From Schmidtea polychroa (taxonomy: Eukaryota), in contig CM097885.1 of assembly GCA_044892525.1 (NCBI GenBank), positions 14,262,001-14,326,000 of the forward strand: a stretch of 64,000 bases of DNA. Reading direction: 5' to 3'. The notes under the pieces are model-generated. The model ran no database searches and was not told the origin of the DNA. It saw only the letters and a list, made by a program, of their open reading frames with translations. Shown one piece after another: positions 1,195 to 55,980 of this stretch (the stretch's first letter is position 1; each line of letters starts with the position of its first letter). The position numbers and the translations under genes are program-made.

Positions 1195-1549
1195 AGTAGG
1201 TAGTTAGTGGCCTACGGCAGCAATAGGGGGGGGGGGGGGGTAAAAATGTTGCAAACTTTTGATTGCATAACTTTTTCCGTAGACATTTTTTGATTACATA
1301 ATTGTTGCTGTAATGCCCAATGTTTTCTGGGATTTTAAATACAAAATTTTTTTTTTTTTTTTTCAATAAACAAGCCAAGGATAAATATTATTTGGGTGGG
1401 TCTCCTTGGTCCTGAGAATTTCAATAGAAAAAGGTAGTCTTCAATAAAAAAGCATGGATTTTTCACACTATAGTGAGGGGATCTTCTTGGTCATGAGAAT
1501 TTCAATAGAAAAGGTGGTTTACATTAAAAAACGCATAGTAAATTTTTAA

Positions 1550-2320
1550 AATAAAGCAAATTATGGTCCTAAAAAATTAAATTAAAGTAAATGATGGGTC
1601 TAAAAATTTAAGTAAATCAAGGTTCAGATTTATTTTTGAAATAAAGTAAATTATGGTCTAAATAAGTAAATTATGGGCTAAGATTTTTCAATTAAAGTAA
1701 ATAATGGTTCTAAAAAATTAAATTACAGTAAATTATGGTCCAAATTTTTAAATTAAAGTAAATTATGGTTCTTAAAAATTAAATTAAAGTAAATTATGGT
1801 CAAAATTTTTGAATTACAGTCCAAAAATTTAAATTAAAGTAAATTATGATCCAAATTTTTAAATTAAAGTAAATTAAAGTAAATAATGGTTCTAAAAAAT
1901 TAAATTAAAGTAAATAATGGTCCTAAAAAATTAAATTACAGTAAATAATGGTCAAAAATTTTAAAATTAAAGTAAATTAAGGTTCTAAAAATTAAATTAA
2001 AGTTAATTAAGGTCCAAATTTTAAAATTAAATAATCAATGGTAAAAAAAATTTAAATTAAAGTTAAATAAGTAAATTAAAGTAATATTTTTTAAATAAGT
2101 AAATTAAAGTAATGTAATAAGTAAATTAAAGTAAGATTTTAAAATTTATTAACAAAAAGTTGAAGGTGTTTGAGAATTGAAATTTTTTAATGGAAATTTT
2201 TATGAATTATTTTTTAAGTAATTTTTAATGGAAATTTTTAAGAATAATTTTCAATGATAATTTTAGATGGAAATTTTAATAGAATAATTTTTAAGATAAT
2301 TTTTAATGAAAATTTTTATG
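1550..2320. repeat. Subterminal AT-rich minisatellite (AAATTAAAGTAAATTATGGTC-like)
   Basis: Degenerate tandem units; mirrored at ~16380-17140; diverged copies at ~8100-9180, ~9510-10590 and ~50850-51400. Confidence 0.85.
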
Positions 2321-2321
2321 A

Positions 2322-2383
<62 letters not shown>

Positions 2384-2521
2384 TAATATTAATAATATAT
2401 CAACCAAATACTATACAACACATAAAAAATTAACTAAACACATAAAAATGAACTAGACACATAACAAACATAAAAATTTACCAAATAACAAATGTAAAGA
2501 TATAAAATTTATTCAATAAAA

Positions 2522-5500
2522 TTAGTCCTCATCGGACAAAATAACGTCATCGATATCGATGTCATCTTCTTCATTAAATTCTTCCTCATCTTCTCCATCA
2601 TTTTCTCCATCATTTTCTCCAACATTTTCTGAAACATTTTCTGCAACAATTTCTCCAACATTTTCTCCAATATTTAATTCACTTAATCTTACATGCCCAT
2701 ATGCAAGACTAGTATTTTTCCCCACCCAAACCCTTTTGTCATCTTTGTTAGTTAGTGCTATTTTTGTGTTTTTAATTGTAAAAATTTGATGATTTTTGCT
2801 TGTTATTTTAGTCTGAGGAACCGAAAAAATCTGGTTAGTGTTATAACAATCGAGGTATGACTGATGTTTTATGTCACTACCTTTCAATGTTACACCTTTA
2901 GCCTTTTTTGTTTCATCATCACCCAACAAGCTATAACATTTAGGTCTAAGAAAAACCCACTCCTTATATTTAAGACCTTTATTCTCGTCTTTGAACTTTC
3001 CAATGACTGAATCAAGGTTCTTGCTATATAAGGAATGACAACTATTGTAATTGGAAGTATCCAATAAATTATCTCGAATCATTGCAGGTAAAAGAACCTC
3101 AAGTTTGCAGTTAATGACTTCGAGGAAAAAAGAATCTGTATCACCAGCAACGATATTAATTTTACAATTAAACTCATTGCGAAATGATTCCAGATCCTTA
3201 TATTGCAATTCATACATTCTAAGTTTAGATAGATCAAGTACAGATTGACCAATGTAACTCGGTCTATCTAAACATATAGAATCTGAATTCAATAATGTTG
3301 CAATTAAATTATCTGCTATTTTAATAGATTTTTTAAAAGTCGGTTTTGACGAATATTTAACTAATTTACCGGCAGTTGTACAAAGACGAAGATTCATTCT
3401 TCTCTTTAAATTTTCAACTGTTTTGCCGTATAAACTGTTATTTAGCAATTTATAATAATTTTTATCTAAGTTATTTACGCTTTTTGATCTTAATTCGGTA
3501 TTTGTATCTATATATTTTTTAAAAATTGGTGATTGCTTAAATCTTACACCCCTATTTACACGTGTTACTTTAACACCAAGTTCCAAATATAATTTTAATA
3601 ATCTCCAATGAATAACATAATTAGATTTTGGAAGATGAGTTAATAATAATTTTTCAACCTTAGACCCAGCAGGTTTCATTTTTTCTGCAGCTACAGGGAA
3701 ATCATCCAACTTATCATGAAGCTCAGAAGGAATTACAAGATCAACTTCAAGTGTGTATCCATAAGACAAAGATTCAAGATTTAAATTCCTACATTCATCC
3801 ATTATTTTATCAAATCCATCAAGAACCCAACAAAATTCGCCACAAGGTAATGATTGACTTAAAGCCCACCCATAAAGATTATTAATATCTATATAAAGTA
3901 ACTCGGTGTTCTCGTCGGTTTTTACGTAATGCTTATTCACAAAAGTAAGACCGCCTCTTATTCCACCCTCATAAAAGCTAAACATTTCGTTTTCAGTTAT
4001 GAGTTCAATTGGTTCATTTAAAGATATTAATGCAGAAGACCAAGACATGCCTGGAATTCCGAAATAATTCAAAGGCTCTAATCTATTGTGAGCAATTGAT
4101 TTCAACCTAAACTGATGAAAGAAATCAGCCAAAAGAAAACAATCAAGTTTTAGGTAGATCATCATATAATCTAATAAAGTTCTGCAATTAGATTCTACCC
4201 AAATCTCCTGAGCTTTTTCATACTCAAGCTCAGTGACACCCTCCCAGATTGGTGGTAATTCATACGTAGTTTGTAGAACATCTAAAGAAGTGGCGAAATT
4301 ATAAGGGAAGATTCCTTTTTCACATACTATGGTGCCAGAAAAAGCAGAATTAGTAAAAGGCAAAGAATTCAAAGTTTTGACTGCTTTAGCCAAAGAATCA
4401 TTGACAAATTGATATGAATCAATGAATCTTATGCTAATTTTGCCTAAATGAGCAATCAAAGATATAAATTTTTCCGTAGTTATTGGGATGCACCCTAAAT
4501 TCCAATTTTTAAATTTATTTAATCCATATTTAAGTATATGATGCATATCGTATCCCTTCAAGTTGTGAAATACGATAGGCAAAATTTTATTTATTTTTCT
4601 ATTTACGTTACATGTGCTACAAGCTGCACCCAAGTATTTGCCCGTAAAATGATCGTGATCTCTAACAGGATCCACGATAGATTTCAAACAAAGATAACAA
4701 ACCGTTGAATTAATGAATTGTTGTTGCTCAATTTTAGTTAATTTAATCATTGGTTTCCTACCCATTTTATAATAAAAAGGAAGAACCTTATTTAATGCTA
4801 TATCCTCTATAGCACTTAAAAAACTCTCGACGCAATCTAAACCTATAAACTGTTGATAGGATTTAGATCCGTCAAAGTTATTTACTAGTAAAAGACCAGC
4901 AGATATTGGCATGTGTCGCTGAAAATGATCATTATCACAAGGTAAAATAGCCTCAAAATCGGCATAAACTACGAAAGGAGGAGTTACTGTTTTCGACCAG
5001 TCAGTAAACTGTAAGAATTTATTTTGAGGGAAAGTATAAAGAGTTGTTCCTAATTGATTGCGTTTGCATAATATTTCATGTTTTTCTAGTGCGTTTCTAT
5101 TATTAAACCCATTCAAACACCGATGGCACCATAATGAACGTATGCGTGTAGGACAACTAGTGTTTATGTGGCAATTCAGTAACCTATTTAAATTGCTTAT
5201 AGCAATGTAATGGAAATTGTTCCCTTTATTTAATAATAGTAAATTAATTACTGTTCCATTTAAAACTTTGGAACGATGTATAATGTCTAAATGGGGGTGT
5301 TTTAAAACGTAATTATCTATTAATTGTTTGTTATGGTCATAAGAAAAAACATTAATTATTAAACCAGGATTTTTGGCCTCGAATTTTCTAATATCTTTTA
5401 ATTTCATTGGTAAGTCTAATGGATTATATATTAACTCAGATAAATTATAACTAGATGTCCTATTTCTAGCATAACTACTAACCTCATCATATTTTAAAAT

Positions 5501-6925
5501 AGCTAAAATGCTATATAAAAAACACGAATCATCGGTGTTTTTTACATTAATTAAACAATATTTATTTTTTAGACAAGTAGGTAGTTCAATGAAACTCCTA
5601 CCACTTAATCTACTTAGCCTACTTATCTTTGTTATGGTGAAGTGAATTTCAGTTATTTTTTTTATGATCCAGCTACTTCCTAACTCTGTGATATTACTTA
5701 TTTTCTCGTTTAGTTCCCTAATGCCTTCGTCAAAAAATGAGGCAGTTAAAGGTTTTGCGTAATTCGAAATATTATTAACCTTTATTTCCCCGTCTTTTTC
5801 AAATTCGATTGTTATTCCGAATTGAATTTTGACGGAGCCTAATTCGTTAATAATATCTCGTAATTTTATAATTAATTGTTCAGGAAATATTATTTCCTTT
5901 ATATTCAAGTTACTTGTATTTAAACTTAATATTTGATGGGTACCCCTTAGATCTTTTTGTATTATGGGAACATTACCCCCTATTTGTATTATATTTAATC
6001 CATCCCAAGAATCAAAGGAATTGAATAATCCGACCTGGGATTCAACAAAAGGCAATCCGACCTGGGATTCAACAAAAGATAATCCGTCCTGGGATTCAAC
6101 AACCAATCCATCATTGGATTCAACAAAAGACAATCCAGCCTGGGATTCAACCTCTAATCCGACCTGGGATTCAAAAGAAGAAGTATCTAATTTAATTTTT
6201 TTATTTGTATTATTTTTTTCTATAGTTGATGGTCTTTTAAAAACACTATCTTTTTTAAAATTAAACCTATCTAAATGATGTTTATGTTTATTATAAAAAA
6301 CGCTATATGTTACAGGGTCACTAGTCTTACATATGGGGCATATAAAAAAAGTTTTATTATAATATTTTTTCGTGTAATAATTCTCCATTATAGAATGGCA
6401 ATTATTATCATGTTCTTTCGATGAACAATAATTTGGGTAAAGTATACCTATAAAATAAAAATTTAATAAAAAAATATATATATATATAATTTAAATGAAA
6501 TATTTTAATAAATGTTTACGCATAAATTTACAAATTTTATTTACTAAAAAAAATAAAAATTTACTAAATTAAAAATATTAACATTTAATTAAATAAAAAA
6601 TTATATTAAATTTCCTTTAAATTATATAAAAAAGTAATCAATACTTACATTGTAAATTTTCATTTCGATTTATTGACACATTGACATAATTTTTCTCTTT
6701 ATTCGTATTACCTAAATTATTAATTAATTAAATCAATAAATAAAAAATTATGTTTACTTTTTCTTTTCAAATTTCCTTTAATCTTCGATTTTAAATTGTC
6801 TTCATTAATATTATCTAAATTAATTAATAAATTAATTAATAAATTAATTAATAAATAAATTATAATTTACCAAATTCCTGAATTTTTCCTCGAACATTCA
6901 TAACGTTTTCTATTAAAGAATTCAT
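2522..6925 (-). CDS. polB: Protein-primed DNA polymerase B, left-arm copy; predicted exons 6925-6871, 6814-6758, 6711-6649, 6447-2522 (1366 aa)
   Basis: 1288-aa ORF with Exo I YADFE, Exo II HNLKGYD, Exo III YLKLD, Pol A DINNLYG, Pol B KLLNNSLYGK, Pol C DTDS and KCY; EndoVII-like DHDH…CSTCN insert; three GT-AG phase-1 introns restore an upstream ATG. Confidence 0.93.
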
Positions 6926-8099
6926 TTTTAAAGGTTAACTATTTGTTAAATGTGACTAATAATTGATTATTGTTTATAGATTATTATTGTTTATAGATTA
7001 TTATTGTTTATAGATTATTATTGTTTATAGATTATTATTGTTTATAGGAACAAATTCTAACCAATCAAAATCAAGGAAGGGTAGGGAAAAATATATTACG
7101 TTGCGGTATTTTAAAATTAAAATTTATTTTAAAAACACATTTTGACGTTAAAGTCGAGTTATGTAACAAAGACATAATAAACTTATTATTTACTACAAAT
7201 ATTTCACCTGTCAAATACCTAACTAGAGATGCTATATATTGATTGTTCATAAAAGCAAACTTAATCATAAATTTCTGTATATTATTTTGTAAATTATTTC
7301 TGTAAATTAAATTTTGTATATTATTTCTGTAAATTATCAAGTAAATTTAAAGTTCTTGATAAGGTTAACTGGTTTCTTAGCTTATGTTTTTTTTTAAAAA
7401 GTTCATCAATGTGTAAATATTCTTAGAAAATTATTGAAAAAAAAAATATTTAGTCAAATGCATTACAAAGTCATCTAAAATTAAACCAATTACTTAATTA
7501 TTAACATAACAGTCATTTAAAAAAAAAATTAATTTTTATTTAAAATTTAACAAATTATCAAGAAATTCAATTAAAATCATCATTAAAACTTTAAATTTTT
7601 TAATAAATCAACATGAAATTCTTAGAAATATGAAAAAAAATATTATTACAAAGTTATATCCTATCACATGATTATTAACCTGACTGTCATTAAAAATAAT
7701 TTTTATTTAAAAAAAAAACCAATCAATTAAAATGCATCCAATTATCAAGAAATTAATTAAATTTATTTAGAACTAACTTAAAATTTTTAAATATTCATTC
7801 AATAAACATGAAATTCACGAAAATGATAAAAATTCACAAAAACCATCAACTCTAAAAAAATAATTACTAATGAATACCTTAAACACCAAAATTTATCTAA
7901 ATAATCTTTCAAATTAATTCATTAAAATTGAAGACAACACGCTCTATTTTGTCATTACATTCAATTAAAATTAAATAAATCAAGATAAGAACTTTGATAA
8001 AAAATATTATTCTAAAATGGTAAAAATTAACACTGTAGTGTTAAATGAAAAGGTAATTATTCTTTAAATCTAATTAACTTAGTCATAATTTTCTTTAAT

Positions 8100-9180
8100 T
8101 TAACCCTTTATTTACTTAATTTAGTCCTTGTTTACCGAATATAGAAGTTTAAAATATAGACCATTGATTACTTTAATTTAAAAATGTATCCCTTAATTTA
8201 CATAATTTCAATCTAAAATTATTTCAAAAAATTTTTTCTAAAATTGTCATTGAAAAATATTTCATAAAAGTTTTCATTTAAAATTTTCATTGAAAAATAT
8301 TTCATAAAAATTTTCATTAAAAATTATCTTAAAAATTATTCCATAAAAATTTCATTAAAAAATTTCAATTCTCAAACACCTTCTATTATTTTGTTAATAA
8401 ATTTAAAATCTTACTTTAATTTGCTTATTACATTACTTATTTAAAAATTATTACTTTAATTTACTTATTTAAAATATTTGACCATTGATTACTTAATTTA
8501 AAAATTTGGACCTTAATTTACTTTAATTTAATTTTTTAGAACCTTAATTTACTTTAATTTTAAATTTTGAACCTTAATTAACTTTAATTCAAATTTGGAC
8601 CTTAATTTACTTTAATTGAAAATTTTAGACCATAATTTACTTAATTGAAATTTTAGACCTTAATTTGCTTATTTATCTTTAATTTACTTAAGTTTAAAAA
8701 TATATACCATAATTTACTTAATTGAAATTTTAGACTTTATTTTAGAACTTAATTGAAAATTTTAGACTTTATTTTAGAACTCAATTGAAAATTTTAGACC
8801 TTAATTTCATGTAAAATTTTAGACCATAATTTACTTATTTGAAAATTTTAGACCTTAAATTGCTTAATTGAAAATTTTAGACCTTAATTTGCTTATTTAT
8901 CTTTAATTTACTTTAATTTAAAATTTTAGACCATAATATACTTAATTGAAAATTTTAGACCATAATTTCATGTAAAATTTTAGACCATAATTTACTTAAT
9001 TGGAAATTTTAGACCTTAATTTGCTTATTTATCTTTAATTTACTTAAGTTTAAAAATATATACCATAATTTACTTTAATTGAAAATTTTAGACCATAATT
9101 TACTTAATTGAAAATTTTAGACCTTAATTTACTTAATTGAAAATTTTAGACCATAATTTTAATGTAAAATTGTCATTGAA
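8100..9180. repeat. Inner, diverged inverted copy of the subterminal minisatellite
   Basis: e.g. AATTCTCAAACACCTTC at ~8370 is the reverse complement of GAAGGTGTTTGAGAATT at ~2165. Confidence 0.8.
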
Positions 9181-9209
9181 AAAATTTTCATTTCTCAGGC
9201 GCTGTTTAT

Positions 9210-9481
9210 AGTAGGTAGATAGGAGCCCGCTGCAAATGCAAGCCTTTTTTTTTGCTGCAACTTTTTTTTGCTGCAACTTTTGATTACGCAATTGTTGCAA
9301 CTAGTTTTTTTTTGTTGTATTTTTTTTGTATTATTACGCAATTGTATTATTTTTTTTTCTAGAATTTTCAATACAAAAAAAAAACAAGTTGCAACAATTG
9401 CGCAATCAAATGTTGCAGCAAAAAAAAAGATGCAGCATAAAAAAAAGGCTTGCATTTGCAGCGGGCTCCTATCTACCTACT
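9210..9481. repeat. 272-bp imperfect central hairpin with its own AGTAGGTAG…CTACCTACT termini
   Basis: AGTAGGTAGATAGGAGCCCGCTGCAAATGCAAGCC at 9210 and its exact complement ending at 9481; scattered mismatches inward, then an unpaired loop near 9320-9370. Confidence 0.9.
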
Positions 9482-11730
9482 ATAAACAGCGCCTGAGAAA
9501 TGAAAATTTTTTCAATGACAATTTTACATTAAAATTATGGTCTAAAATTTTCAATTAAGTAAATTAAGGTCTAAAATTTTCAATTAAGTAAATTATGGTC
9601 TAAAATTTTCAATTAAAGTAAATTATGGTATATATTTTTAAACTTAAGTAAATTAAAGATAAATAAGCAAATTAAGGTCTAAAATTTCCAATTAAGTAAA
9701 TTATGGTCTAAAATTTTACATGAAATTATGGTCTAAAATTTTCAATTAAGTATATTATGGTCTAAAATTTTAAATTAAAGTAAATTAAAGATAAATAAGC
9801 AAATTAAGGTCTAAAATTTTCAATTAAGCAATTTAAGGTCTAAAATTTTCAAATAAGTAAATTATGGTCTAAAATTTTACATGAAATTAAGGTCTTAAAT
9901 TTTCAATTGAGTTCTAAAATAAAGTCTAAAATTTTCAATTAAGTTCTAAAATAAAGTCTAAAATTTCAATTAAGTAAATTATGGTATATATTTTTAAACT
10001 TAAGTAAATTAAAGATAAATAAGCAAATTAAGGTCTAAAATTTCAATTAAGTAAATTATGGTCTAAAATTTTCAATTAAAGTAAATTAAGGTCCAAATTT
10101 GAATTAAAGTTAATTAAGGTTCAAAATTTAAAATTAAAGTAAATTAAGGTTCTAAAAAATTAAATTAAAGTAAATTAAGGTCCAAATTTTTAAATTAAGT
10201 AATCAATGGTCAAATATTTTAAATAAGTAAATTAAAGTAATAATTTTTAAATAAGTAATGTAATAAGCAAATTAAAGTAAGATTTTAAATTTATTAACAA
10301 AATAATAGAAGGTGTTTGAGAATTGAAATTTTTTAATGAAATTTTTATGGAATAATTTTTAAGATAATTTTTAATGAAAATTTTTATGAAATATTTTTCA
10401 ATGAAAATTTTAAATGAAAACTTTTATGAAATATTTTTCAATGACAATTTTAGAAAAAATTTTTTGAAATAATTTTAGATTGAAATTATGTAAATTAAGG
10501 GATACATTTTTAAATTAAAGTAATCAATGGTCTATATTTTAAACTTCTATATTCGGTAAACAAGGACTAAATTAAGTAAATAAAGGGTTAAATTAAAGAA
10601 AATTATGACTAAGTTAATTAGATTTAAAGAATAATTACCTTTTCATTTAACACTACAGTGTTAATTTTTACCATTTTAGAATAATATTTTTTATCAAAGT
10701 TCTTATCTTGATTTATTTAATTTTAATTGAATGTAATGACAAAATAGAGCGTGTTGTCTTCAATTTTAATGAATTAATTTGAAAGATTATTTAGATAAAT
10801 TTTGGTGTTTAAGGTATTCATTAGTAATTATTTTTTTAGAGTTGATGGTTTTTGTGAATTTTTATCATTTTCGTGAATTTCATGTGGATTGAATGAATAT
10901 TTAAAAATTTTAAGTTAGTTCTAAATAAATTTAATTAATTTCTTGATAATTGGATGCATTTTAATTGATTGGTTTTTTTTTTAAATAAAAATTATTTTTA
11001 ATGACAGTCAGGTTAATAATCATGTGATAGGATATAACTTTGTAATAATATTTTTTTTCATATTTCTAAGAATTTCATGTTGATTTATTAAAAAATTTAA
11101 AGTTTTAATGATGATTTTAATTGAATTTCTTGATAATTTGTTAAATTTTAAATAAAAATTAATTTTTTTTTTAAATGACTGTTATGTTAATAATTAAGTA
11201 ATTGGTTTAATTTTAGATGACTTTGTAATGCATTTGACTAAATATTTTTTTTTTCAATAATTTTCTAAGAATATTTACACATTGATGAACTTTTAAAAAA
11301 AAACATAAGCTAAGAAACCAGTTAACCTTATCAAGAACTTTAAATTTACTTGATAATTTACAGAAATAATATACAAAATTTAATTTACAGAAATAATTTA
11401 CAAAATAATATACAGAAATTTATGATTAAGTTTGCTTTTATGAACAATCAATATATAGCATCTCTAGTTAGGTATTTGACAGGTGAAATATTTGTAGTAA
11501 ATAATAAGTTTATTATGTCTTTGTTACATAACTCGACTTTAACGTCAAAATGTGTTTTTAAAATAAATTTTAATTTTAAAATACCGCAACGTAATATATT
11601 TTTCCCTACCCTTCCTTGATTTTGATTGGTTAGAATTTGTTCCTATAAACAATAATAATCTATAAACAATAATAATCTATAAACAATAATCAATTATTAG
11701 TCACATTTAACAAATAGTTAACCTTTAAAA

Positions 11731-14700
11731 ATGAATTCTTTAATAGAAAACGTTATGAATGTTCGAGGAAAAATTCAGGAATTTGGTAAATTTTAATTTA
11801 TTTATTAATTAATTTATTAATTAATTTATTAATTAATTTAGATAATATTAATGAAGACAATTTAAAATCGAAGATTAAAGGAAATTTGAAAAGAAAAAGT
11901 AAACATAATTTTTTATTTATTGATTTAATTAATTAATAATTTAGGTAATACGAATAAAGAGAAAAATTATGTCAATGTGTCAATAAATCGAAATGAAAAT
12001 TTACAATGTAAGTATTGATTACTTTTTTATATAATTTAAAGGAAATTTAATATAATTTTTTATTTAATTAAATGTTAATATTTTTAATTTAGTAAATTTT
12101 TATTTTTTTTAGTAAATAAAATTTGTAAATTTATGCGTAAACATTTATTAAAATATTTCATTTAAATTATATATATATATATTTTTTTATTAAATTTTTA
12201 TTTTATAGGTATACTTTACCCAAATTATTGTTCATCGAAAGAACATGATAATAATTGCCATTCTATAATGGAGAATTATTACACGAAAAAATATTATAAT
12301 AAAACTTTTTTTATATGCCCCATATGTAAGACTAGTGACCCTGTAACATATAGCGTTTTTTATAATAAACATAAACATCATTTAGATAGGTTTAATTTTA
12401 AAAAAGATAGTGTTTTTAAAAGACCATCAACTATAGAAAAAAATAATACAAATAAAAAAATTAAATTAGATACTTCTTCTTTTGAATCCCAGGTCGGATT
12501 AGAGGTTGAATCCCAGGCTGGATTGTCTTTTGTTGAATCCAATGATGGATTGGTTGTTGAATCCCAGGACGGATTATCTTTTGTTGAATCCCAGGTCGGA
12601 TTGCCTTTTGTTGAATCCCAGGTCGGATTATTCAATTCCTTTGATTCTTGGGATGGATTAAATATAATACAAATAGGGGGTAATGTTCCCATAATACAAA
12701 AAGATCTAAGGGGTACCCATCAAATATTAAGTTTAAATACAAGTAACTTGAATATAAAGGAAATAATATTTCCTGAACAATTAATTATAAAATTACGAGA
12801 TATTATTAACGAATTAGGCTCCGTCAAAATTCAATTCGGAATAACAATCGAATTTGAAAAAGACGGGGAAATAAAGGTTAATAATATTTCGAATTACGCA
12901 AAACCTTTAACTGCCTCATTTTTTGACGAAGGCATTAGGGAACTAAACGAGAAAATAAGTAATATCACAGAGTTAGGAAGTAGCTGGATCATAAAAAAAA
13001 TAACTGAAATTCACTTCACCATAACAAAGATAAGTAGGCTAAGTAGATTAAGTGGTAGGAGTTTCATTGAACTACCTACTTGTCTAAAAAATAAATATTG
13101 TTTAATTAATGTAAAAAACACCGATGATTCGTGTTTTTTATATAGCATTTTAGCTATTTTAAAATATGATGAGGTTAGTAGTTATGCTAGAAATAGGACA
13201 TCTAGTTATAATTTATCTGAGTTAATATATAATCCATTAGACTTACCAATGAAATTAAAAGATATTAGAAAATTCGAGGCCAAAAATCCTGGTTTAATAA
13301 TTAATGTTTTTTCTTATGACCATAACAAACAATTAATAGATAATTACGTTTTAAAACACCCCCATTTAGACATTATACATCGTTCCAAAGTTTTAAATGG
13401 AACAGTAATTAATTTACTATTATTAAATAAAGGGAACAATTTCCATTACATTGCTATAAGCAATTTAAATAGGTTACTGAATTGCCACATAAACACTAGT
13501 TGTCCTACACGCATACGTTCATTATGGTGCCATCGGTGTTTGAATGGGTTTAATAATAGAAACGCACTAGAAAAACATGAAATATTATGCAAACGCAATC
13601 AATTAGGAACAACTCTTTATACTTTCCCTCAAAATAAATTCTTACAGTTTACTGACTGGTCGAAAACAGTAACTCCTCCTTTCGTAGTTTATGCCGATTT
13701 TGAGGCTATTTTACCTTGTGATAATGATCATTTTCAGCGACACATGCCAATATCTGCTGGTCTTTTACTAGTAAATAACTTTGACGGATCTAAATCCTAT
13801 CAACAGTTTATAGGTTTAGATTGCGTCGAGAGTTTTTTAAGTGCTATAGAGGATATAGCATTAAATAAGGTTCTTCCTTTTTATTATAAAATGGGTAGGA
13901 AACCAATGATTAAATTAACTAAAATTGAGCAACAACAATTCATTAATTCAACGGTTTGTTATCTTTGTTTGAAATCTATCGTGGATCCTGTTAGAGATCA
14001 CGATCATTTTACGGGCAAATACTTGGGTGCAGCTTGTAGCACATGTAACGTAAATAGAAAAATAAATAAAATTTTGCCTATCGTATTTCACAACTTGAAG
14101 GGATACGATATGCATCATATACTTAAATATGGATTAAATAAATTTAAAAATTGGAATTTAGGGTGCATCCCAATAACTACGGAAAAATTTATATCTTTGA
14201 TTGCTCATTTAGGCAAAATTAGCATAAGATTCATTGATTCATATCAATTTGTCAATGATTCTTTGGCTAAAGCAGTCAAAACTTTGAATTCTTTGCCTTT
14301 TACTAATTCTGCTTTTTCTGGCACCATAGTATGTGAAAAAGGAATCTTCCCTTATAATTTCGCCACTTCTTTAGATGTTCTACAAACTACGTATGAATTA
14401 CCACCAATCTGGGAGGGTGTCACTGAGCTTGAGTATGAAAAAGCTCAGGAGATTTGGGTAGAATCTAATTGCAGAACTTTATTAGATTATATGATGATCT
14501 ACCTAAAACTTGATTGTTTTCTTTTGGCTGATTTCTTTCATCAGTTTAGGTTGAAATCAATTGCTCACAATAGATTAGAGCCTTTGAATTATTTCGGAAT
14601 TCCAGGCATGTCTTGGTCTTCTGCATTAATATCTTTAAATGAACCAATTGAACTCATAACTGAAAACGAAATGTTTAGCTTTTATGAGGGTGGAATAAGA

Positions 14701-16134
14701 GGCGGTCTTACTTTTGTGAATAAGCATTACGTAAAAACCGACGAGAACACCGAGTTACTTTATATAGATATTAATAATCTTTATGGGTGGGCTTTAAGTC
14801 AATCATTACCTTGTGGCGAATTTTGTTGGGTTCTTGATGGATTTGATAAAATAATGGATGAATGTAGGAATTTAAATCTTGAATCTTTGTCTTATGGATA
14901 CACACTTGAAGTTGATCTTGTAATTCCTTCTGAGCTTCATGATAAGTTGGATGATTTCCCTGTAGCTGCAGAAAAAATGAAACCTGCTGGGTCTAAGGTT
15001 GAAAAATTATTATTAACTCATCTTCCAAAATCTAATTATGTTATTCATTGGAGATTATTAAAATTATATTTGGAACTTGGTGTTAAAGTAACACGTGTAA
15101 ATAGGGGTGTAAGATTTAAGCAATCACCAATTTTTAAAAAATATATAGATACAAATACCGAATTAAGATCAAAAAGCGTAAATAACTTAGATAAAAATTA
15201 TTATAAATTGCTAAATAACAGTTTATACGGCAAAACAGTTGAAAATTTAAAGAGAAGAATGAATCTTCGTCTTTGTACAACTGCCGGTAAATTAGTTAAA
15301 TATTCGTCAAAACCGACTTTTAAAAAATCTATTAAAATAGCAGATAATTTAATTGCAACATTATTGAATTCAGATTCTATATGTTTAGATAGACCGAGTT
15401 ACATTGGTCAATCTGTACTTGATCTATCTAAACTTAGAATGTATGAATTGCAATATAAGGATCTGGAATCATTTCGCAATGAGTTTAATTGTAAAATTAA
15501 TATCGTTGCTGGTGATACAGATTCTTTTTTCCTCGAAGTCATTAACTGCAAACTTGAGGTTCTTTTACCTGCAATGATTCGAGATAATTTATTGGATACT
15601 TCCAATTACAATAGTTGTCATTCCTTATATAGCAAGAACCTTGATTCAGTCATTGGAAAGTTCAAAGACGAGAATAAAGGTCTTAAATATAAGGAGTGGG
15701 TTTTTCTTAGACCTAAATGTTATAGCTTGTTGGGTGATGATGAAACAAAAAAGGCTAAAGGTGTAACATTGAAAGGTAGTGACATAAAACATCAGTCATA
15801 CCTCGATTGTTATAACACTAACCAGATTTTTTCGGTTCCTCAGACTAAAATAACAAGCAAAAATCATCAAATTTTTACAATTAAAAACACAAAAATAGCA
15901 CTAACTAACAAAGATGACAAAAGGGTTTGGGTGGGGAAAAATACTAGTCTTGCATATGGGCATGTAAGATTAAGTGAATTAAATATTGGAGAAAATGTTG
16001 GAGAAATTGTTGCAGAAAATGTTTCAGAAAATGTTGGAGAAAATGATGGAGAAAATGATGGAGAAGATGAGGAAGAATTTAATGAAGAAGATGACATCGA
16101 TATCGATGACGTTATTTTGTCCGATGAGGACTAA
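11731..16134 (+). CDS. polB: Protein-primed DNA polymerase B, right-arm copy; predicted exons 11731-11785, 11842-11898, 11945-12007, 12209-16134 (1366 aa)
   Basis: Translation identical to the left copy; introns of 56, 46 and 201 nt, all GT…AG and phase 1, with no stop in the joined frame. Confidence 0.93.
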
Positions 16135-16321
16135 TTTTATTGAATAAATTTTATATCTTTACATTTGTTATTTGGTAAATTTTTATGTTTGTTATGTGTC
16201 TAGTTCATTTTTATGTGTTTAGTTAATGTTTATATGTTTTGTTATGTGTCTAGTTATTTTTATGTGTTTAGTTAATTTTTTATGTGTTGTATAGTATTTG
16301 GTTGATATATTATTAATATTA

Positions 16322-16371
<50 letters not shown>

Positions 16372-17491
16372 TCATAAAAATTTTCATTAAAAATTATCTT
16401 AAAAATTATTCTATTAAAATTTCCATCTAAAATTATCATTGAAAATTATTCTTAAAAATTTCCATTAAAAATTACTTAAAAAATAATTCATAAAAATTTC
16501 CATTAAAAAATTTCAATTCTCAAACACCTTCAACTTTTTGTTAATAAATTTTAAAATCTTACTTTAATTTACTTATTACATTACTTTAATTTACTTATTT
16601 AAAAAATATTACTTTAATTTACTTATTTAACTTTAATTTAAATTTTTTTTACCATTGATTATTTAATTTTAAAATTTGGACCTTAATTAACTTTAATTTA
16701 ATTTTTAGAACCTTAATTTACTTTAATTTTAAAATTTTTGACCATTATTTACTGTAATTTAATTTTTTAGGACCATTATTTACTTTAATTTAATTTTTTA
16801 GAACCATTATTTACTTTAATTTACTTTAATTTAAAAATTTGGATCATAATTTACTTTAATTTAAATTTTTGGACTGTAATTCAAAAATTTTGACCATAAT
16901 TTACTTTAATTTAATTTTTAAGAACCATAATTTACTTTAATTTAAAAATTTGGACCATAATTTACTGTAATTTAATTTTTTAGAACCATTATTTACTTTA
17001 ATTGAAAAATCTTAGCCCATAATTTACTTATTTAGACCATAATTTACTTTATTTCAAAAATAAATCTGAACCTTGATTTACTTAAATTTTTAGACCCATC
17101 ATTTACTTTAATTTAATTTTTTAGGACCATAATTTGCTTTATTTTAAAAATTTACTATGCGTTTTTTAATGTAAACCACCTTTTCTATTGAAATTCTCAT
17201 GACCAAGAAGATCCCCTCACTATAGTGTGAAAAATCCATGCTTTTTTATTGAAGACTACCTTTTTCTATTGAAATTCTCAGGACCAAGGAGACCCACCCA
17301 AATAATATTTATCCTTGGCTTGTTTATTGAAAAAAAAAAAAAAAAATTTTGTATTTAAAATCCCAGAAAACATTGGGCATTACAGCAACAATTATGTAAT
17401 CAAAAAATGTCTACGGAAAAAGTTATGCAATCAAAAGTTTGCAACATTTTTACCCCCCCCTATTGCTGCCGTAGGCCACTAACTACCTACT

Positions 17492-17497
17492 AGGGTT
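17492..17497. repeat. 6-bp target site duplication AGGGTT (right copy)
   Basis: Identical hexamer at 1189-1194. Confidence 0.9.
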
Positions 17498-17700
17498 ATG
17501 TTGTTACAGAGGGAGAGGGATTAATTAGTGAAGGTGGTAAACCAAATCCCATCAATCTTTTTATTGAATTAAGAAAACTATTAGCTGCAAGGAAAGCAGG
17601 ACATAATAATTTAGATTCTGATATTTTAAAGATTTCTAAAGATTTGTTAAAACAAGGAATAATTTCAAAAGATAAATTTAATAAGTATACGAAGTTATAA
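17497..17700 (+). pseudogene. Polinton conserved protein, 3' part (67 aa plus stop)
   Basis: YVVTEGEGLISEGGKPNPINLFIELRKLLAARKAGHNNLDSDILKISKDLLKQGII…; the LxxLLAxxxAGHN…L…GII C-terminus is a recurrent Polinton motif; in frame with 504-1194. Confidence 0.85.
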
Positions 17701-17722
17701 ATACGAAGTTTTAAAATACAAA

Positions 17723-18187
17723 ATGACTCCTTCAATATTAGATTTTTTAAAAACATTTGGAATAAATGCAAAAACAAATTTTGATTTAAAAGATTATGCA
17801 AATTATTTAAATTTAAAAATTAAAATATTAATGAATGATGAATTATCAAGTCTGGAGAGTCCCCTGAATATAATAATCAATTATCAAAATTCAAATGAAA
17901 ATGGATCTCATTGGGTTTGTATATATAAGAAATCTATCTACTTTGATTCTTTTGGGATTAAACCTACTAAAGAAGTTGAAGATTATCTCTTGGGGGGTTC
18001 TCCGATTGATTCCCCAAATGGTTATACTTTTAACTCTTTACAAGTTCAACCTTTGAATACTAAAATATGTGGTATTTTAAGTTTATATGTTTTGTATAGA
18101 TTGAATAAGGGAGAGGGAAAGGGGCATACGCAGGATTTTGAATCTATAATTCAAGAAATTTATAATGATCTAGAATCTCTACTATAA
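17723..18187 (+). CDS. Adenain-like cysteine protease (Polinton PRO)
   Basis: GSHWVC…YFDSFG…QVQ…ICG, giving the His-Asp-Gln-Cys order of adenoviral C5 proteases. Confidence 0.92.
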   Translation: MTPSILDFLKTFGINAKTNFDLKDYANYLNLKIKILMNDELSSLESPLNIIINYQNSNENGSHWVCIYKKSIYFDSFGIKPTKEVEDYLLGGSPIDSPNGYTFNSLQVQPLNTKICGILSLYVLYRLNKGEGKGHTQDFESIIQEIYNDLESLL

Positions 18188-18235
18188 GGATTTTTACTAT
18201 AAGGATTTTTACTATATGAATTTACTACTAAAGAA

Positions 18236-19000
18236 ATGGAGCTTCACAACCCTCCGGAAGATAATTTAAAAAAAATGGTAAACATAATGTCAGATAAATA
18301 TTCAAGAACTTTATCTATAAATTCAAAAGAATCAGACTTTACTATAAACTTTCAAGATTCAATTAAATTAGATCAAAATTTAAATTATGAATTGGGGCTA
18401 TTATGGTTTTGTGCTTATAATACTATTTTTAATATAACTAAAGATAATAATAAATTTACTATTCAAACTCGTGATGGGCATAAACCAGAAATTATAACAA
18501 TAGAACCTGGGGCATATGAGATAAAAGATTTAAATGATATACTTTCTAAAAAAACAAATGAAGGTATTAAAATTAAAATGGATATACCAACTTCAAAATG
18601 TGTAATGACTTTGAAGAATATAAAAATTAGTTTTTTAGATAATTGTTTCTTTCACACAGTTTTAGGATTTAAACCTATGGATATAACAATAAAAGAAGAT
18701 AAAATAATAACATCAGAACATATTATAAAAATAATAAATACAAACACAATAAATATTCATTGCGATTGTATAACAGGTTCTTATAATAATGGTAAACAAA
18801 CAAATGTTTTATATTCCTTTCCCTCAAACACAGTTCCTATGGGATATAAAATAGTTGAAAGAATGAATCCTCCAAATTATTTACCTTTATGTAGAAAATA
18901 TATAATGGATATTAATTTTAAAATTCTTAATCAAGAAGGAGAATTGATTGATTTTAATGGAGAAGAGATTTCAATGTATTTACATTTGAAACAGGTTTGA
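18236..19000 (+). CDS. Minor capsid protein (penton, single jelly-roll)
   Basis: YELGL…YNTIFNI…PGAYEI…INIHCDCITGSYNNG…LYSF…GYKIVE…YLPL…IDFNGE pattern of Polinton minor capsid proteins; adjacent to the protease. Confidence 0.8.
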   Translation: MELHNPPEDNLKKMVNIMSDKYSRTLSINSKESDFTINFQDSIKLDQNLNYELGLLWFCAYNTIFNITKDNNKFTIQTRDGHKPEIITIEPGAYEIKDLNDILSKKTNEGIKIKMDIPTSKCVMTLKNIKISFLDNCFFHTVLGFKPMDITIKEDKIITSEHIIKIINTNTINIHCDCITGSYNNGKQTNVLYSFPSNTVPMGYKIVERMNPPNYLPLCRKYIMDINFKILNQEGELIDFNGEEISMYLHLKQV

Positions 19001-19024
19001 AGATTCATTTTAAATTATTAATAA

Positions 19025-20035
19025 ATGAGTTCTTATATTCCATGTAATAGAGGTGGTGGAACAATAAAAACAGGGTTTAATACAGAAGAAATATTAACTT
19101 TAACAGAAAATAAATATATTAATGAAAGAGGTGATTCAATGAAGGGTGATTTAATTTTAAATGGACACAAGATAAAAGAATTATCTTTTCCAACTGATGA
19201 AGCTGATGCAGTTAATAAGAAATATGTAGATGGTGTTAAAAAATATACTGATTTAACAACAACAAGAATTGAAAGTTCATTAACAACAAAAATTGATTCA
19301 ATGGAATCAAAGCTTAATAATATCGAACAACGATTTAATGATAAATTTGACAAGTTACAAAGTCTGTTAACTGAACAAGTTGTAAAGTTAAATACTGCTA
19401 TATTAAATTCTAAAGATAAACAAATTATGAATACTAAATTTAATACAATATATAAAATAATAAATGAGATGATTACATCATTTAATAAAAGAATTTCAAA
19501 TTTAGAGTCTCATGGAACACACATTAACACCACACATAGTATTAGAAAAAGAGCTGCTGAATTAGAACAGAATAAAACATTATTACCCCATACATATAAA
19601 CATTTTATAGAACCAAGTTTAATAACAACAAACAGTAAAGAATGGGGTGTTTTTATGGTTGTAAAAATTATTGATCCTTATTTCTTTTTGTTTGATGATG
19701 ATAATGAAAGAATGAAATGGTTTGTGAAATGTGATTATAATAGTAAGCTTGAAAAGGGTGATGTTATAATGACTAGTTATGATTTACCACACGGAGATTG
19801 GTATGTTAATACTCATTCACATGGACTACATAAAGTTAAAAGTAAGAATATTCATTTTTCTAGTTCACTTGTACAATATATAGATTTAATATTTTATGAA
19901 AAAAAGGTTGATGTTGATGAAGTTCGTAAAGCATTGAGAGAATTGTATAAAGATATCCTCTCAACAAGAGTTTCTTTTGATATCCGAGTATTGGTGCCAG
20001 ATGGTGCTCAGAAGAATAAAGTCTTATTTTTTTAA
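19025..20035 (+). CDS. Putative fibre/spike protein
   Basis: N-terminal GDSMKGDLILNGHKIKEL…PTDEADAVNKKYVD fibre-type repeat, then a coiled coil and an unrelated C-terminal domain. Confidence 0.6.
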   Translation: MSSYIPCNRGGGTIKTGFNTEEILTLTENKYINERGDSMKGDLILNGHKIKELSFPTDEADAVNKKYVDGVKKYTDLTTTRIESSLTTKIDSMESKLNNIEQRFNDKFDKLQSLLTEQVVKLNTAILNSKDKQIMNTKFNTIYKIINEMITSFNKRISNLESHGTHINTTHSIRKRAAELEQNKTLLPHTYKHFIEPSLITTNSKEWGVFMVVKIIDPYFFLFDDDNERMKWFVKCDYNSKLEKGDVIMTSYDLPHGDWYVNTHSHGLHKVKSKNIHFSSSLVQYIDLIFYEKKVDVDEVRKALRELYKDILSTRVSFDIRVLVPDGAQKNKVLFF

Positions 20036-20043
20036 TTATTAAA

Positions 20044-20640
20044 ATGGAAGAAGTAAGAGAAGAAAAAATTTACCCAGAATTGAGATCATCAGGATATTAT
20101 TCTTCCAAGGCCTCGGCTCCCACAGAACTTGAAATTATGAGAGTAAAAGAATTTAAATCAGAAACCTTACATTTACAAGATTTATTAAAGCATTATAAAA
20201 AAATTAAAAATAGATGGAATAAAGGGAATACAGTTTTAAAAGTTATAGGTTATTCTTTAGGATTTGCATCTGCAATATTAACAGTTATTTTACCCATAAC
20301 TTTACCAGTTGTTACTCTTGCACCTGTAATACTTGGAAGTATTTCTGTGGCTGATGGTTTCTTAACTGAAATAGTTTCATTATCTTATACTTCTAAAAAG
20401 AAAAGTTTATATAGAGAAGTTTGTTTATCAATAGAATTAGGAATCTCTAAATTATTTTTATTTCAATTAAAAGCTTTGGAAGATGGAATCCTGACAGACG
20501 AAGAAATAATGAAATCAAATCAAATAATACAAGATATAAAGAATGAGGTTATAAGATTAAAAAGGGAGGGCATGGTGGCTAATGTTATAAGTAATAAAAA
20601 AACATCTCGAGAAAAATGGTTAAAGAATTCTTACTTATAA
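20044..20640 (+). CDS. Polinton/adintovirus membrane protein (so-called gasderminX-like)
   Basis: IYPEL…SAP N-terminus, helical region, long hydrophobic stretch, KALEDGILTDEE motif. Confidence 0.55.
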   Translation: MEEVREEKIYPELRSSGYYSSKASAPTELEIMRVKEFKSETLHLQDLLKHYKKIKNRWNKGNTVLKVIGYSLGFASAILTVILPITLPVVTLAPVILGSISVADGFLTEIVSLSYTSKKKSLYREVCLSIELGISKLFLFQLKALEDGILTDEEIMKSNQIIQDIKNEVIRLKREGMVANVISNKKTSREKWLKNSYL

Positions 20641-20726
20641 AATGGGTGTATTTTTAAAAAAGTAGATCAAGTTGATATAGTTGCTTAAATTAATTGTCGA
20701 CATTTTATTATTAAATATCGTTGGTT

Positions 20727-23700
20727 TCAGTTATGGTTGAAAGCCAACCTATGAATCATTAATTTATGATCTTTAAATTCTTTATCACTTAGACCTTTTA
20801 TATATTCAGGATCAGTATTAAAATATTTAAGTTCTAAACATATAGGATTAAAAACTTGAGAATATAAAGGTTTCTCGATTTCTCTCTCGGGATAAATAAT
20901 TTCAACATTATAAATATCAAGATCAGTAATCTTTGTATCATATAACTTATTCAACTTTTCTAGATTTTTTATTATAGGGATTAAATTATTTCCAATAGGT
21001 AGAGTTGTCTTTAAATCACTTAGTATGAATCTCTTATCATCATAATTTGATAATGATACTTTTTGAGATTCTATCAAGTGAATATCATGGTTTTCACTTT
21101 TAAGTTGATGTACTTCATCAATTTTATCTTTATGATTTGGATTCAATGTATCTATATAATCTTGATGAGAAAGATTCTTTGCAACCACTCTCTGTATTCC
21201 TTTACATCTGTTATCCTTTACAGGTTTTTCTTCTTTAGGAAATATAGGATATCTATGTGTAATGGTTTCTTCTGTTTCTGGAGTTTTAAATATAAATGAT
21301 CTAGTTATAAATTCAGGGTTTCTAAATGTTTCGTATGAATATTGTTTAGCACGAATAAATATTCCATTTTCTATAGGAGTAAAAGGTTTTTCATCTTTAA
21401 ACGAAAATAGTTCTCCAGATGAATTTATTAAATTTGAAAGTATAGGATTTTCAGCTATATCTCTTTGTAAATCATGAGTTCTTATTGTTAAAAACATTGA
21501 ATCTGTATCCATTGCATGCATTGATATATTTGCTCCGTATATAGGTTGTAAGATGTTATAATATGTTTCATACATTTGTAATTTTGAAAGTTCTAAAATT
21601 GTAAACCCTATAAATATTGGTTTGTTATATGTTTTCTCATAATTTTTTAATTCTACTGCAGTAAGATTTTCAGAAAATACTTGTGCGTTTTTAAATGTAG
21701 GCTTTCCTAGCATGCGATTATAACGCTTAATATCTTTGGTAGTATTTGTTAGGAGTTCAATATTAGTATATTTATCAACATTCTCCATTGTTTTCCCAAA
21801 TACTGAATTGTTTAAAATTTTATAATTATTATCTTTAAAAAGGTTACCTTCTCTTTTTGCAATGTTTCGACACCTAATGTTCTCCTCGATAAAAGCTTTC
21901 ATGAATGGAGCTTGTTTAAATCTTATGACACTATGAACTTTTTTTAATATCATTCCTCGTGAGAGATAAAATTGGAGGAGTCTATAGTGACAAAGATAAA
22001 ACCTTCGATCTGTTTGATCACAAAGAAGTTTCATTGTTGGAGGTTTATCTTGTGAGATTTGCCATTCAGAAAGTTCGTTGATATCAATCTTTCTTCTTAT
22101 GGGAGCTAAAGGAAAATATCTTGTTCCTGATTTTATAACATCTGGATAGTCGAGGTCACATTCTATAAAGTAACCTATTGGAGAATCTTTCGATGTTGAA
22201 AGTATTTCTTTCATAAGGTCATCTGTTGGGTTCTCTATTTCAGTGAAATCACTCATTGGTAAATATTGAGTCATAATTCCTGAATATAAAGCTGTTGCAT
22301 CTATATAAAGTATAAATATAGGATTTTTCATTGTTTCTAATAATTCTTTTAATTCCTCATTGTTAATTTTCATATATGGATCATCAGGGTGTTTAGATAG
22401 TCTTCGGCTAGTAGTTATTGCATTTCTAGCTTTTATTTCTCTATTCCCCATTACTGAAGAGACTCCTCCTCTAATGTTTGTTTTAATTTGGTTAAACATA
22501 TCGAGGTTAGTTAAAAGATCTATAATTTTATCAGCATCTTCTATATTTGAAGTCCAAATGGTATATAACATAGTATCTCAAGCTAAAGAGGGTGCAGTTA
22601 TATAATTATAAGGTTTAAGAACAAAAGAGTTTGTAAATTCTTCAAAGCAATCTGCTAGAATATAAACATCTAAGGATAAATACATGTTGGTATATTCTCC
22701 TAAAGTTTTACACTTGAATAATTCCCACATTTTTAATGCTCGAGAATATTCTTGATCTGTAATCCCTGATTGTAGTAAGTTTGAAAAGAAATCTTCTTTG
22801 TTAGGAAGACTTGTTTCATTATATCTTTCAAACGAGTCAACATAGTCATAAGGATATATTCCTTTTGCTAAGCATGTAGGATATTCTTCTGGAGGATTAT
22901 TATTTTTTTCCAAGAATTCTCGAGTGATTTTAAAATTTTCTGGTTTCATTGTTTTTGCTACTGCATCTAGAGACATTTGGAGAAAGTTTAACGAGTCTAT
23001 AAATTTTAATTTTCCATATTCAACTGATTTATATTTTTCTTTTGTTAAGCCGATAACTTTGAAAGAGTTTTTAGCATTTGCTGCTAAATGTTTAATAAAT
23101 AGATGTATGTCATATCCAAAAAGATTATGAAATATAACAGGTATAAATTTAGGAGTATGGCAATTAAGATTGCAATTTTTATGAGCTGCTCCTCGATAAT
23201 TATTTTCCTTTTTTAAATGATCATGATCTATAACTTTTTCATCAGGAAGAATATTCTGTTTACACATCCAACAGTTGGAAGTATTTTCATATTCTTGTTG
23301 TTGTTGATTAGAAATATTTTGAGGATACTTTGTTTTTAATATTTTAAATATTTCATGTTCTAGATCATTTATATTTTTAGTAAAATGATTCAAGACTTCT
23401 TCAGGGGTACCTCCTAGAATTGAATATTCTCTAGATTCTATGAGTTCAGGATAATTACTTTTAAATAATAATTTATAAGCAGATGGTAATTGTTTAGTTT
23501 TTTTAACACTATTAGGTTTATTTCTTTTTCTTAGAAAGGCTTTCATCCTCTCTGGTTTCATCTTCTCTCCTGAGGAGTTCCATAAATCCATGAGTTTATT
23601 TTTTTCTATTATTTTTAAATATTGATAAACCAAATCTTGTTTATGGTTTATAGATTCAAAGTCACCATAAAGAACTCCAACTGTTTGTAGTAAATTTGAA

Positions 23701-25046
23701 AAATTTTTAAAATACATCTTGGGATTATTAGGCATATTTATTAAAGCTGGATCATCTTTTTCACAAAATCTTGTATGTTTAATCATAGAGTTTTTAGTTG
23801 TTGAATAATGAAGACATCTTTTACATGTTCCTCCTCCACTAGTTGGATTCTCTGGTGATGTAAAAGCTTGAAAGTTTTTTATTAAAACATAATGTTGATT
23901 ATTTTGTTGTTCCAAGATTAAAAGATATATCTCGTTGTCCTGTGCTCCGTTATCCTTGGTTCCACTATCTGAAATATAAATTGGAATAATTTCTTTCCCT
24001 ATAACATGTTCATAAATATTAAGTTTAAGATTATTTAATTTTTCAAATTCTGGAATGTCTTCTAGTTTCATTGGGTGTTTGAATCCTTTGGGAAATATTA
24101 ATTCATTTTCATATTGTTTGTATTTTGAAACTCTTTGGGGATTTGTTGCTTGAGGATGTAAATGTGCAAGTATTGACCAGATGAAACATTTGTTATCATT
24201 ATTCTGTACATTTATAACATTTTTAGATTTAAAGGGTGTAGGAATATAAGATTTAGGATTGGGTGGTAATCCTCTCCAATCATGAATCACTAAAGTTTGG
24301 AAAGAGTTGAATTCTAAGTTTGAATCTCCTAATTCATTTTCTACTTCCTCTTGTTTTGCTTCTGCTGCTTTAATTATTTCTTTGATGGTTTTATCAAATC
24401 CTTTAATTGAAAATAAATATTTAAAAGGTATTCCAATTTCAACATCTAAGGGTGTTGTCTTTTCTTCTGCTCCTCGCCAGTATTTTGCTTTGATTATAAT
24501 TTTATATTTTATAACATTATACCTTGTCGGTTTATAATTTTTTAAAGCTTCAGTGAAAGAATTTTTAATATTTTTTTTATTTTTATTTATATATTCTCCA
24601 GGAGTTGCAGGCCCATTAATTTTTAATTGAAATTCATCTATATGATTAAAATTATCCCAGTTATATTTTTCTCTTTCAACATGATCAGGTTCTCCTTCTG
24701 AATGACATTCCTCATCGTCAGAATTTTGTTTTTTATTTTTACATTCTTTTATATGTTCTAAATAATAGAAATTTAGTTTTGTTGAAAAGTTACAATGAGG
24801 ACATGTAAATATTTCTCTATTTTTCCATATACAATTTTCAAAATGTTTATTATATCCAGAATGTAGAAATCTTCCTTTACATTTAGGACAAACTTTTGAA
24901 TTTGTATCATTAAGATTGTTTTCTTTTAATAAATGAGCTTTCGATTTTAAGTGAGAAATTAATCCAGTTTTATTTTTAAAAACTTTATTACAAATATTAC
25001 AATTCATTTTTAGAAAAAAATTTTTTATTGGATACCCTGTTTTCAT
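20727..25046 (-). pseudogene. polB: Polinton pPolB with N-terminal C2H2 fingers, split by an in-frame TGA at 22580-22578
   Basis: Two ORFs in the same frame: …TAPSLA*DTML, where the family has W; motifs YGDFE, HNLFGYD, DATALY, KILNNSVFGK, DTDS. Confidence 0.9.
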
Positions 25047-25113
25047 TTTATTTTTTAAGATTTATATTATTCATTTTTTATAAATTAAAAATTAAAAAAA
25101 TGACAAAAATCCA

Positions 25114-26330: not shown

Positions 26331-31669
<5,339 letters not shown>

Positions 31670-55176: not shown

Positions 55177-55980
55177 ACCTGTCAAGATAAGAATATTGCT
55201 GTTTTTCTATTTTCCCGATTACAAAATTCAAATTTTCTGATTTACATTTATTTAAAAAAGCTTTACTTATAAAATTTATATTTTTAAAATTTAATTTTGA
55301 TTATATTTTCTAAGACTTATATTTGAATATTTAACTTATTTTGAATGAAAAGGGTAAAATATATATTATTATCTTTTATGATAATTGTTTTTGAAATACA
55401 TAATGCAGATTAAAAGATTTTAGTAATAATTTGCAATTATTTTAGTCAAAAATTAAAAAAAAAAGACCTATTCCATATTTCTTAATCAAATACCACTCAC
55501 AGCTTGTTATGTAATAAAATAGTCGCGGCTTGTTATGTAATAAATTAGTTTAAAATAATTTAAATTACATATCCTTCTCACTTATATTCCCCCGATTCTC
55601 AATATTCCATTAATTCACTAATATCCCCCCGATTTCTCATTAATTATAACCCCCCACCCCCCGAAATTTAATCAATTATATTCCGCCGATTTTGATTAAT
55701 TATTCAATACATCCATTTTTATCAACCTTCATGTTATCTATGCCCATTCAATGATCCATTAATGAATTATTCTACCAATTATTTTCACCCATTTGAATTT
55801 ATCATCGAGTAATGAATAATTTCCTCACTTTAATGAAGATTCTTACCACCTTCATTGTTAATTTTATCAAAGTTTAAAGAATAATTGTCTTTTCATTGCT
55901 TACCACTTTAGAATTTTTATCAAAATTTATGATAATTTGACTAATTCAATGAAAAATTTGAATGAGTTAATTAATATATA

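Follow-up and report, generated by a model that had tools for sequence, protein, structure and literature searches.

A palindromic, pPolB-only Polinton dimer with a hairpin of two element termini at its centre in Schmidtea polychroa

A palindromic Polinton derivative in the window

The DNA analysed here, called the window throughout, is a stretch of 64,000 nucleotides from Schmidtea polychroa (contig CM097885.1, positions 14,262,001 to 14,326,000). It contains a palindrome of 16,297 bp (1195-17491) that is flanked on both sides by the direct repeat AGGGTT, a target site duplication (TSD) whose left and right copies lie at 1189-1194 and 17492-17497 on the plus strand. The left arm (1195-9209, plus strand) begins with an outer Polinton terminus of the kind that we call C-type, and the right arm (9482-17491, minus strand) is an inverted copy of it that finishes in the outer terminus of the other side; the two arms are 4 substitutions and some repeat-length indels apart. 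A single long open frame was found in each arm. The first, a pPolB frame of 1322 codons from stop to stop, occupies 2522-6490 on the minus strand and is directed away from the centre, and the second (12166-16134, plus strand) encodes an identical protein. Integrase, packaging ATPase and capsid genes were not found in the window element, and neither its open reading frames nor a Pfam search revealed a Rep/NS1 HUH nickase within it.

Between the arms lies a central hairpin (9210-9481) made of two Polinton-type termini that flank an asymmetric loop. The first of these, the A end (9210-9305, plus strand), shows homology with free Polinton termini over their first ~95 bases, and the second, the B end (9385-9481, minus strand), is a degenerate inverted terminus and the putative annealing partner of A. 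The centre starts with AGTAGGTAG at 9210 and ends with CTACCTACT at 9481, and the same 9 bases stand at 1195 and 17491. By chance this 9-mer is expected ~0.19 times per 64-kb strand, and its only further pair in the window lies within the polB frame, at 5576 with a mirror at 13072. When folded as single-stranded DNA the centre reached -114.5 kcal/mol (z = -24.9), a value equalled by 0 of 200 shuffles. In contrast to the near-identical arms, its stem holds many mismatches as well as the loop, and the arms meet it in inverted orientation (GTTTAT on one side, ATAAAC on the other). These results bear out what had been noticed in an earlier, sequence-only reading of the window, namely outer 9-base ends repeated at the symmetry centre, an imperfect stem with a loop, inverted flanks and near-identical arms, and the fold proposed there as a check gave a strong hairpin.

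The arms also contain subterminal repeats. A block at 1539-2327 (plus strand) matches 8218-8957 in inverted orientation at ~75%, and the inner block to which the latter belongs (8218-9171, minus strand) adjoins the centre and has its mirror at 9520-10473. Judged by their sequence, 1539-2327 and 8218-8957 appear to be the diverged terminal inverted repeat (TIR) pair of an ancestral monomer. A TATAAAC box spans the junction of centre and arm (9481-9487, plus strand; mirror at 9204-9210). TATAAAC boxes occur also in short repeats at 6978-7046 and 11644-11684, ~500 bp upstream of polB, and an ATAAAC box precedes four open reading frames of a complete Polinton.

We take the motifs of the encoded protein to be those of a family B exonuclease and polymerase. 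The protein scored 0.98 against clusters labelled DNA_pol_B_2/Endonuclease_7 in the Atlas and carries, near residues 594-629, an insert resembling endonuclease VII/HNH (PF02945, E 0.003, below the cut-off). A Pfam search of the protein returned this nuclease insert alone and no polymerase name, and a search of PDB gave no match. The insert is common across pPolBs in the Atlas clusters too, and it is described as widespread among pPolBs generally (PMC10748475). The same genome contains a complete Polinton (L119+L120) of 16,575 bp with 1.1-kb TIRs and the duplication ATAGTA; it encodes an A32-like ATPase and a capsid-like protein and shows a weak integrase-core match (E 4e-4, below the cut-off). 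One arm of the window element matches it with 93.8% identity over 4628 bp that cover pPolB, and the dimer is therefore a pPolB-only derivative of a Polinton. Its AGTAGGTAG termini are common to the complete family and it is flanked by a 6-bp TSD; these AGT-type ends and the 6-bp duplication agree with what is described for Polintons (PMC8097293). Thus, the element is a non-autonomous Polinton/Maverick derivative that has kept only pPolB, in two divergent copies. It shares pPolB, the AGT-type end motif and the 6-bp duplication with Polintons/Mavericks, but differs from them in being fully palindromic, with an inverted repeat of ~8 kb where published TIRs measure 100-1500 bp (PMC10748475), and in having two pPolB genes and four termini without integrase, ATPase or capsid.

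Around the palindrome lies an open frame of another, more distant Polinton-like gene block (465-1194 and 17498-25061), whose own polB-like frames lie at 20727-25061. Another polB-like frame (28322-31669) shows 66% identity with the pPolB of the element, and 60337-62240 contains remnants of a hAT transposase (zf-BED and dimerisation domain).

Conservation of the centre and integration of whole dimers

We found at least 109 copies of the centre in the genome, 91 by an exact 22-base loop pattern and 18 by a second pattern. Mirrored arms were present on both sides in 68 of the 91 copies, all of which were classified; the remaining 23 were damaged or ended on one side. A free MITE form of the 272-bp unit was found in 0 of 91 copies, none of which had foreign DNA on both sides, and in 0 of the 17 further centres examined from the second pattern, which rules out the reading of the centre as a free MITE. 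Wide occurrence as an independent MITE, with no other family copy carrying it at a centre or end, had been named beforehand as the outcome that would make the centre a one-off accident; the centre is instead a conserved feature of the family. In addition, contigs from two further studies cross a junction of centre and arm (X5 record 20 and X7 record 27).

Some copies carry other forms of the centre. Two (L060, L084) have turned symmetric, with the loop duplicated and B at both ends. In six older variants (L190, L193, L194, L196, L221, L222) the arm is joined two bases earlier on both sides, at GTTT/AGTAG instead of GTTTAT/AGTAG, a shift that strikes us as reminiscent of the dinucleotide processing carried out, we presume, by integrases.

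Whole dimers were compared in 18 cases, chosen as having both outer ends listed; 13 have the window-type centre and 5 another. The 6-bp TSD was exact in 16 of the 18, one of which sits in an AT microsatellite, and had one mismatch in the other 2. The flanks were direct duplications in this sense in all 18 and were never mirrored. The dimer itself is the integrating unit. Five of the 13 dimers with the window-type centre have gene-less arms around it.

Arms were far more alike within a copy than between copies. Over the 3.7 kb of the polB arms, 0-19 substitutions separated the two arms of one copy, and medians of 81-169 separated them from other copies. Arms grouped by copy in 13 of 13 dimers, also in a tree, and copy-private variants were common to both arms. 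This pairing by copy indicates that arms are repeatedly re-copied from each other, which could take place during extrachromosomal snap-back or in the chromosome. In one copy (d87.50) the duplication contains a mismatch, yet the arms show 0 differences over 3744 bp, which favours some chromosomal conversion after insertion. In the 520 bp of arm next to the centre, a median of 10 events was counted within a copy and 36 between copies, figures swamped by changes in repeat number.

Asymmetry of the central ends and use of the A end

The two ends of the centre are not equivalent. A matches free Polinton termini over its first ~95 bases, and its alleles recur on free subfamilies; a C-run/G-run hairpin occurred at 49 of the 68 A ends and at none of the 68 B ends. 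The B end is degenerate and nearly invariant. In 52 of the 68 two-armed copies the ends of the centre diverge from base 14 inward or earlier. The centre in the window belongs to a minority: the first 43 bases of its A end (9210-9252) are a copy of the B end. Beyond base 13, B had overwritten A in 13 of the 68 copies, A had overwritten B in 2, both had occurred in 1 and neither in 52; because tract lengths and arm backgrounds vary, several separate conversion events must be involved. The tenth base of the central ends was A/A in 30 copies, A/T in 21, T/T in 17 and T/A in 0. Agreement thus takes both forms, with the A-type base at both ends in 30 copies and the B-type base in 17, and conversion is therefore two-way. 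In predicted folds, the 3′ A end paired with B in 5 of 5 unconverted centres.

Free A-type termini (L119:331-400, L106:470-540) contain a stem-loop that lies ~20 bases from the end and in which subfamilies differ by paired changes (CGGCAGCA/TGCTGCCG versus TGCAACAA/TTGTTGCA). Outer C-type ends are without this stem-loop.

Breakpoints followed the same asymmetry. In seven loci (L017, L022, L047, L188, L215, L216, L218) A is the exact point at which foreign or rearranged DNA takes over, and the only break exactly at B (L031) is an internal duplication. Two copies that end at the hairpin are flanked by a duplication, one of 8035 bp without genes (L017/L100, TAAATG) and one of 16,040 bp (L047, ATCAGC); both are chimeras. 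A thus works as a real end, and the polarity originally proposed, with the 3′ end at 9481 as the functional primer, has to be reversed: the 9210 side is the true Polinton terminus, and 9481 is degenerate. The accompanying view of the palindrome as two units with proper termini holds for 9210 (A), which is used as an integration end, and is not supported for 9481 (B).

The search for monomers gave a mixed outcome. It yielded the A-ended copies above and a pPolB-only monomer of 8434 bp (L195, duplication TTTAGC) with an ordinary A-type end and without B, the expected kind of precursor; it yielded no clean 8.3-kb pPolB monomer with a hairpin end and a duplication. For L215, L216 and L218, the duplications expected had no nearby match among the first 100 of 389 (positions covered), and the far ends of L188, L216 and L218 were looked for and not found. 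Two apparent monomers were rejected, L043 being a dimer split by a TG...CA LTR-type insertion of ~15 kb with a 4-bp duplication, and L022 a dimer that has been rearranged and is flanked by an outer duplication of its own. As for flip and flop orientations, no flipped (9481-side) terminus was seen among the copies; the counts of 7 breakpoints at A and 0 at B with foreign DNA are a small sample, and orientation is undefined in symmetric dimers. A free mini-Polinton of 1.3 kb (L188:3730-5040, duplication ATGGTG) lies in a decayed, gene-bearing Polinton that ends in the central hairpin.

Origin and maintenance of the dimers

A second lineage shows a comparable layout. Five other pPolB palindromes, in one of which a terminus is deleted, have a centre of ~1 kb bounded by AGTAGAGTAGT...ACTACTCTACT with mirrored flanks. 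This lineage is more numerous than that of the window, its terminus giving 498 matches. Among the first 30 of these, 29 lie at an arm junction and the remaining one terminates a separate long-TIR element of 10 kb, which indicates that the second-lineage centre is a mini-element of a different family. An empty target site for either centre was not found among the fetched loci and 17 junction loci taken from the first 100 of 299 matches, and for this reason the origin of the centres as inserted mini-elements is one that we only infer. Palindromes also exist without such centres: gene-less palindromes of 15-17 kb had no termini at the centre in 3 of 3 examined. Central termini are therefore not needed for palindromy, to which these elements show another route. 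The same terminal family includes elements of 9-17 kb without genes that are palindromic or have long TIRs (L106+L107, L108+L109, L126+L127, L101), and 55234-55706 of the window resembles their spacer.

Because the centre is a hairpin of two element ends, a fold-back self-priming origin is suggested. On balance we hold it moderately probable that the dimer is a snap-back satellite of Polintons, seeded by fold-back at a hairpin end, spread as a dimer and re-homogenised. A linear pPolB-only monomer would have gained, either because a mini-Polinton inserted or because copy-back occurred locally, an end of ~270 bp that joins A, an intact terminus, to B, an inverted and degenerate copy of it. After strand displacement, the bottom-strand 3′ end at A (9210) of the freed single strand could anneal to B 270 nt away and be extended along the arm, which would give a palindrome with identical outer ends. 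The dimer integrates whole, with a 6-bp duplication; it may be copied by protein priming from its outer ends and, since it encodes no integrase, presumably uses the helper integrase of complete Polintons. Repeated re-copying of one arm from the other, through snap-back or a template switch at the centre, would explain why the two arms of a copy are so similar and why conversion tracts extend inward, starting at the arm junction. From time to time the internal A terminus is still used as a real end. Self-priming and a landed mini-element, first put forward as alternatives, largely merge here, for a hairpin of two termini probably seeded the fold-back; what falls away is the one-off event. Against this explanation stand the lack of a clean hairpin-ended monomer, the palindromes without central termini, the two-way conversion and copy d87.50.

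The last three of these points would fit a different account, in which the centre is a passive spacer left by one copy-back template switch between nearby inverted termini in an intact molecule with no free end, and arms are kept alike by chromosomal gene conversion or because the polymerase stalls at the C-run/G-run of A. Such stalling would be expected to produce the bias of B over A as well, and the apparent monomer L043 is a mere LTR-type insertion beside A. We regard this account as unlikely, given that it leaves unexplained why two unrelated centres both start exactly at termini, why A is intact and B decayed, and why duplication-flanked copies end at A.

It is rather doubtful that the dimers pass through a regular hybrid cycle, cut or nicked at A in each round, with a helper integrase and the HNH/endonuclease-VII-like pPolB domain as candidate enzymes, into hairpin-ended monomers that self-prime back. 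Such a cycle would account for the homogenised arms in every copy tested, for the finding that, in 60 of 68 copies, the two arms agree throughout their first 60 bases with A and B still distinct, for the terminal hairpin and free-subfamily alleles retained by A, and for the seven breakpoints exactly at A; the nuclease-like insert in pPolB could supply the activity. The insert is general among pPolBs, however (PMC10748475), conversions of A to B occur, and gene-less palindromes do without central termini. With no clean duplication-flanked monomer, no flipped or B-terminal copy, no Rep gene and conversion running both ways, a regular rolling-hairpin cycle is unproven. The parvovirus-like dimer envisaged in the sequence-only reading survives in so far as the arms are regenerated from each other; no nickase, clean hairpin-ended monomer or flipped end was found to go with it. 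Equally speculative, and in our estimate improbable, is the boldest form of the idea, a satellite replicon that is primed in turn by protein at its outer ends and by its own hairpin at an internal terminus, is resolved by a helper integrase or the pPolB nuclease insert, has arisen at least twice in one genome, and acts as a polymerase-amplifying, virion-sized (~16 kb, two polymerase genes) snap-back partner of complete elements.

A fold-back artefact of sequencing or assembly, or a one-off accident in the window copy, is very improbable: no short-read contig crosses the palindrome, and 31 kb upstream, beside an N gap, a locus (L110, G000:C1:14231704) repeats the left end of the element and its flank at 100% over 1977 bp, probably an assembly overlap and a sign that the local assembly is imperfect, but non-mirrored flanks with direct duplications in 18 of 18 dimers (two with one mismatch), arms that differ by indels and have copy-private variants in common, at least 109 centres and the junction-bridging contigs from two further studies exclude artefact or single accident at the level of the family.

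Related systems and wider context

Three known systems resemble parts of this picture. In the rolling hairpin of AAV2, the terminal hairpin primes synthesis and yields a mirrored dimer with a hairpin at its junction (PMC11575299). A terminal hairpin could likewise have primed a mirrored dimer here, but no Rep nickase, terminal resolution site or flip/flop was identified for the Polinton dimers, and the end product is a dimer instead of monomers. By the tests run (no Rep, no flip/flop), the Polinton dimer is not a replicon of the parvovirus type. AAV snapback molecules duplicate one genome end into a self-complementary, helper-dependent form, with the promoter region central in the head-to-head dimer (PMC8235507). 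These and other copy-back defective genomes share with the Polinton dimers the inverted duplication of one end and the loss of internal genes. In contrast to them, the Polinton dimers are integrated, heritable, many-copy transposons with ends of the protein-primed type, the point where they turn back consists of two termini, and the structure is known here from assembled contigs. The rDNA palindrome of Tetrahymena arises by fold-back priming at a 42-bp inverted repeat (PMC3734650, citing Butler 1995), again a case in which synthesis primed by fold-back at a short inverted repeat beside a free end produces a large palindrome; there the end is created by programmed breakage and acquires telomeres, whereas that of the Polinton dimer is a transposon terminus and the product integrates.

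Titles and abstract openings in the literature searched mentioned no palindromic Polinton dimers; Repbase lay outside this search, and an entry may exist there. The available text of PMC6431247, PMC3014272 and bioRxiv 2024.01.15.575659 describes no such dimer. Polintons have been characterised primarily in silico (PMC10748475), and their replication has so far been deduced mostly from gene content. The dimer families look like fossil replication intermediates, with re-copied arms, directional tracts and an internal terminus that is sometimes used. A giant mobile palindrome seems to have arisen from a nested pair of termini at least twice, and ~100 copies of one centre together with ~500 terminus matches of another make fold-back, strand displacement and end recognition testable.

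Termini of the family of the window element gave at least 1850 matches to one pattern across the genome, which indicates that family elements make up a large part of its repeats. A tandem array with units of ~4.6 kb (L208, G000:C1 0.6-1.34 Mb) lies near the start of contig C1, each unit consisting of the inner part of an arm and a truncated centre.
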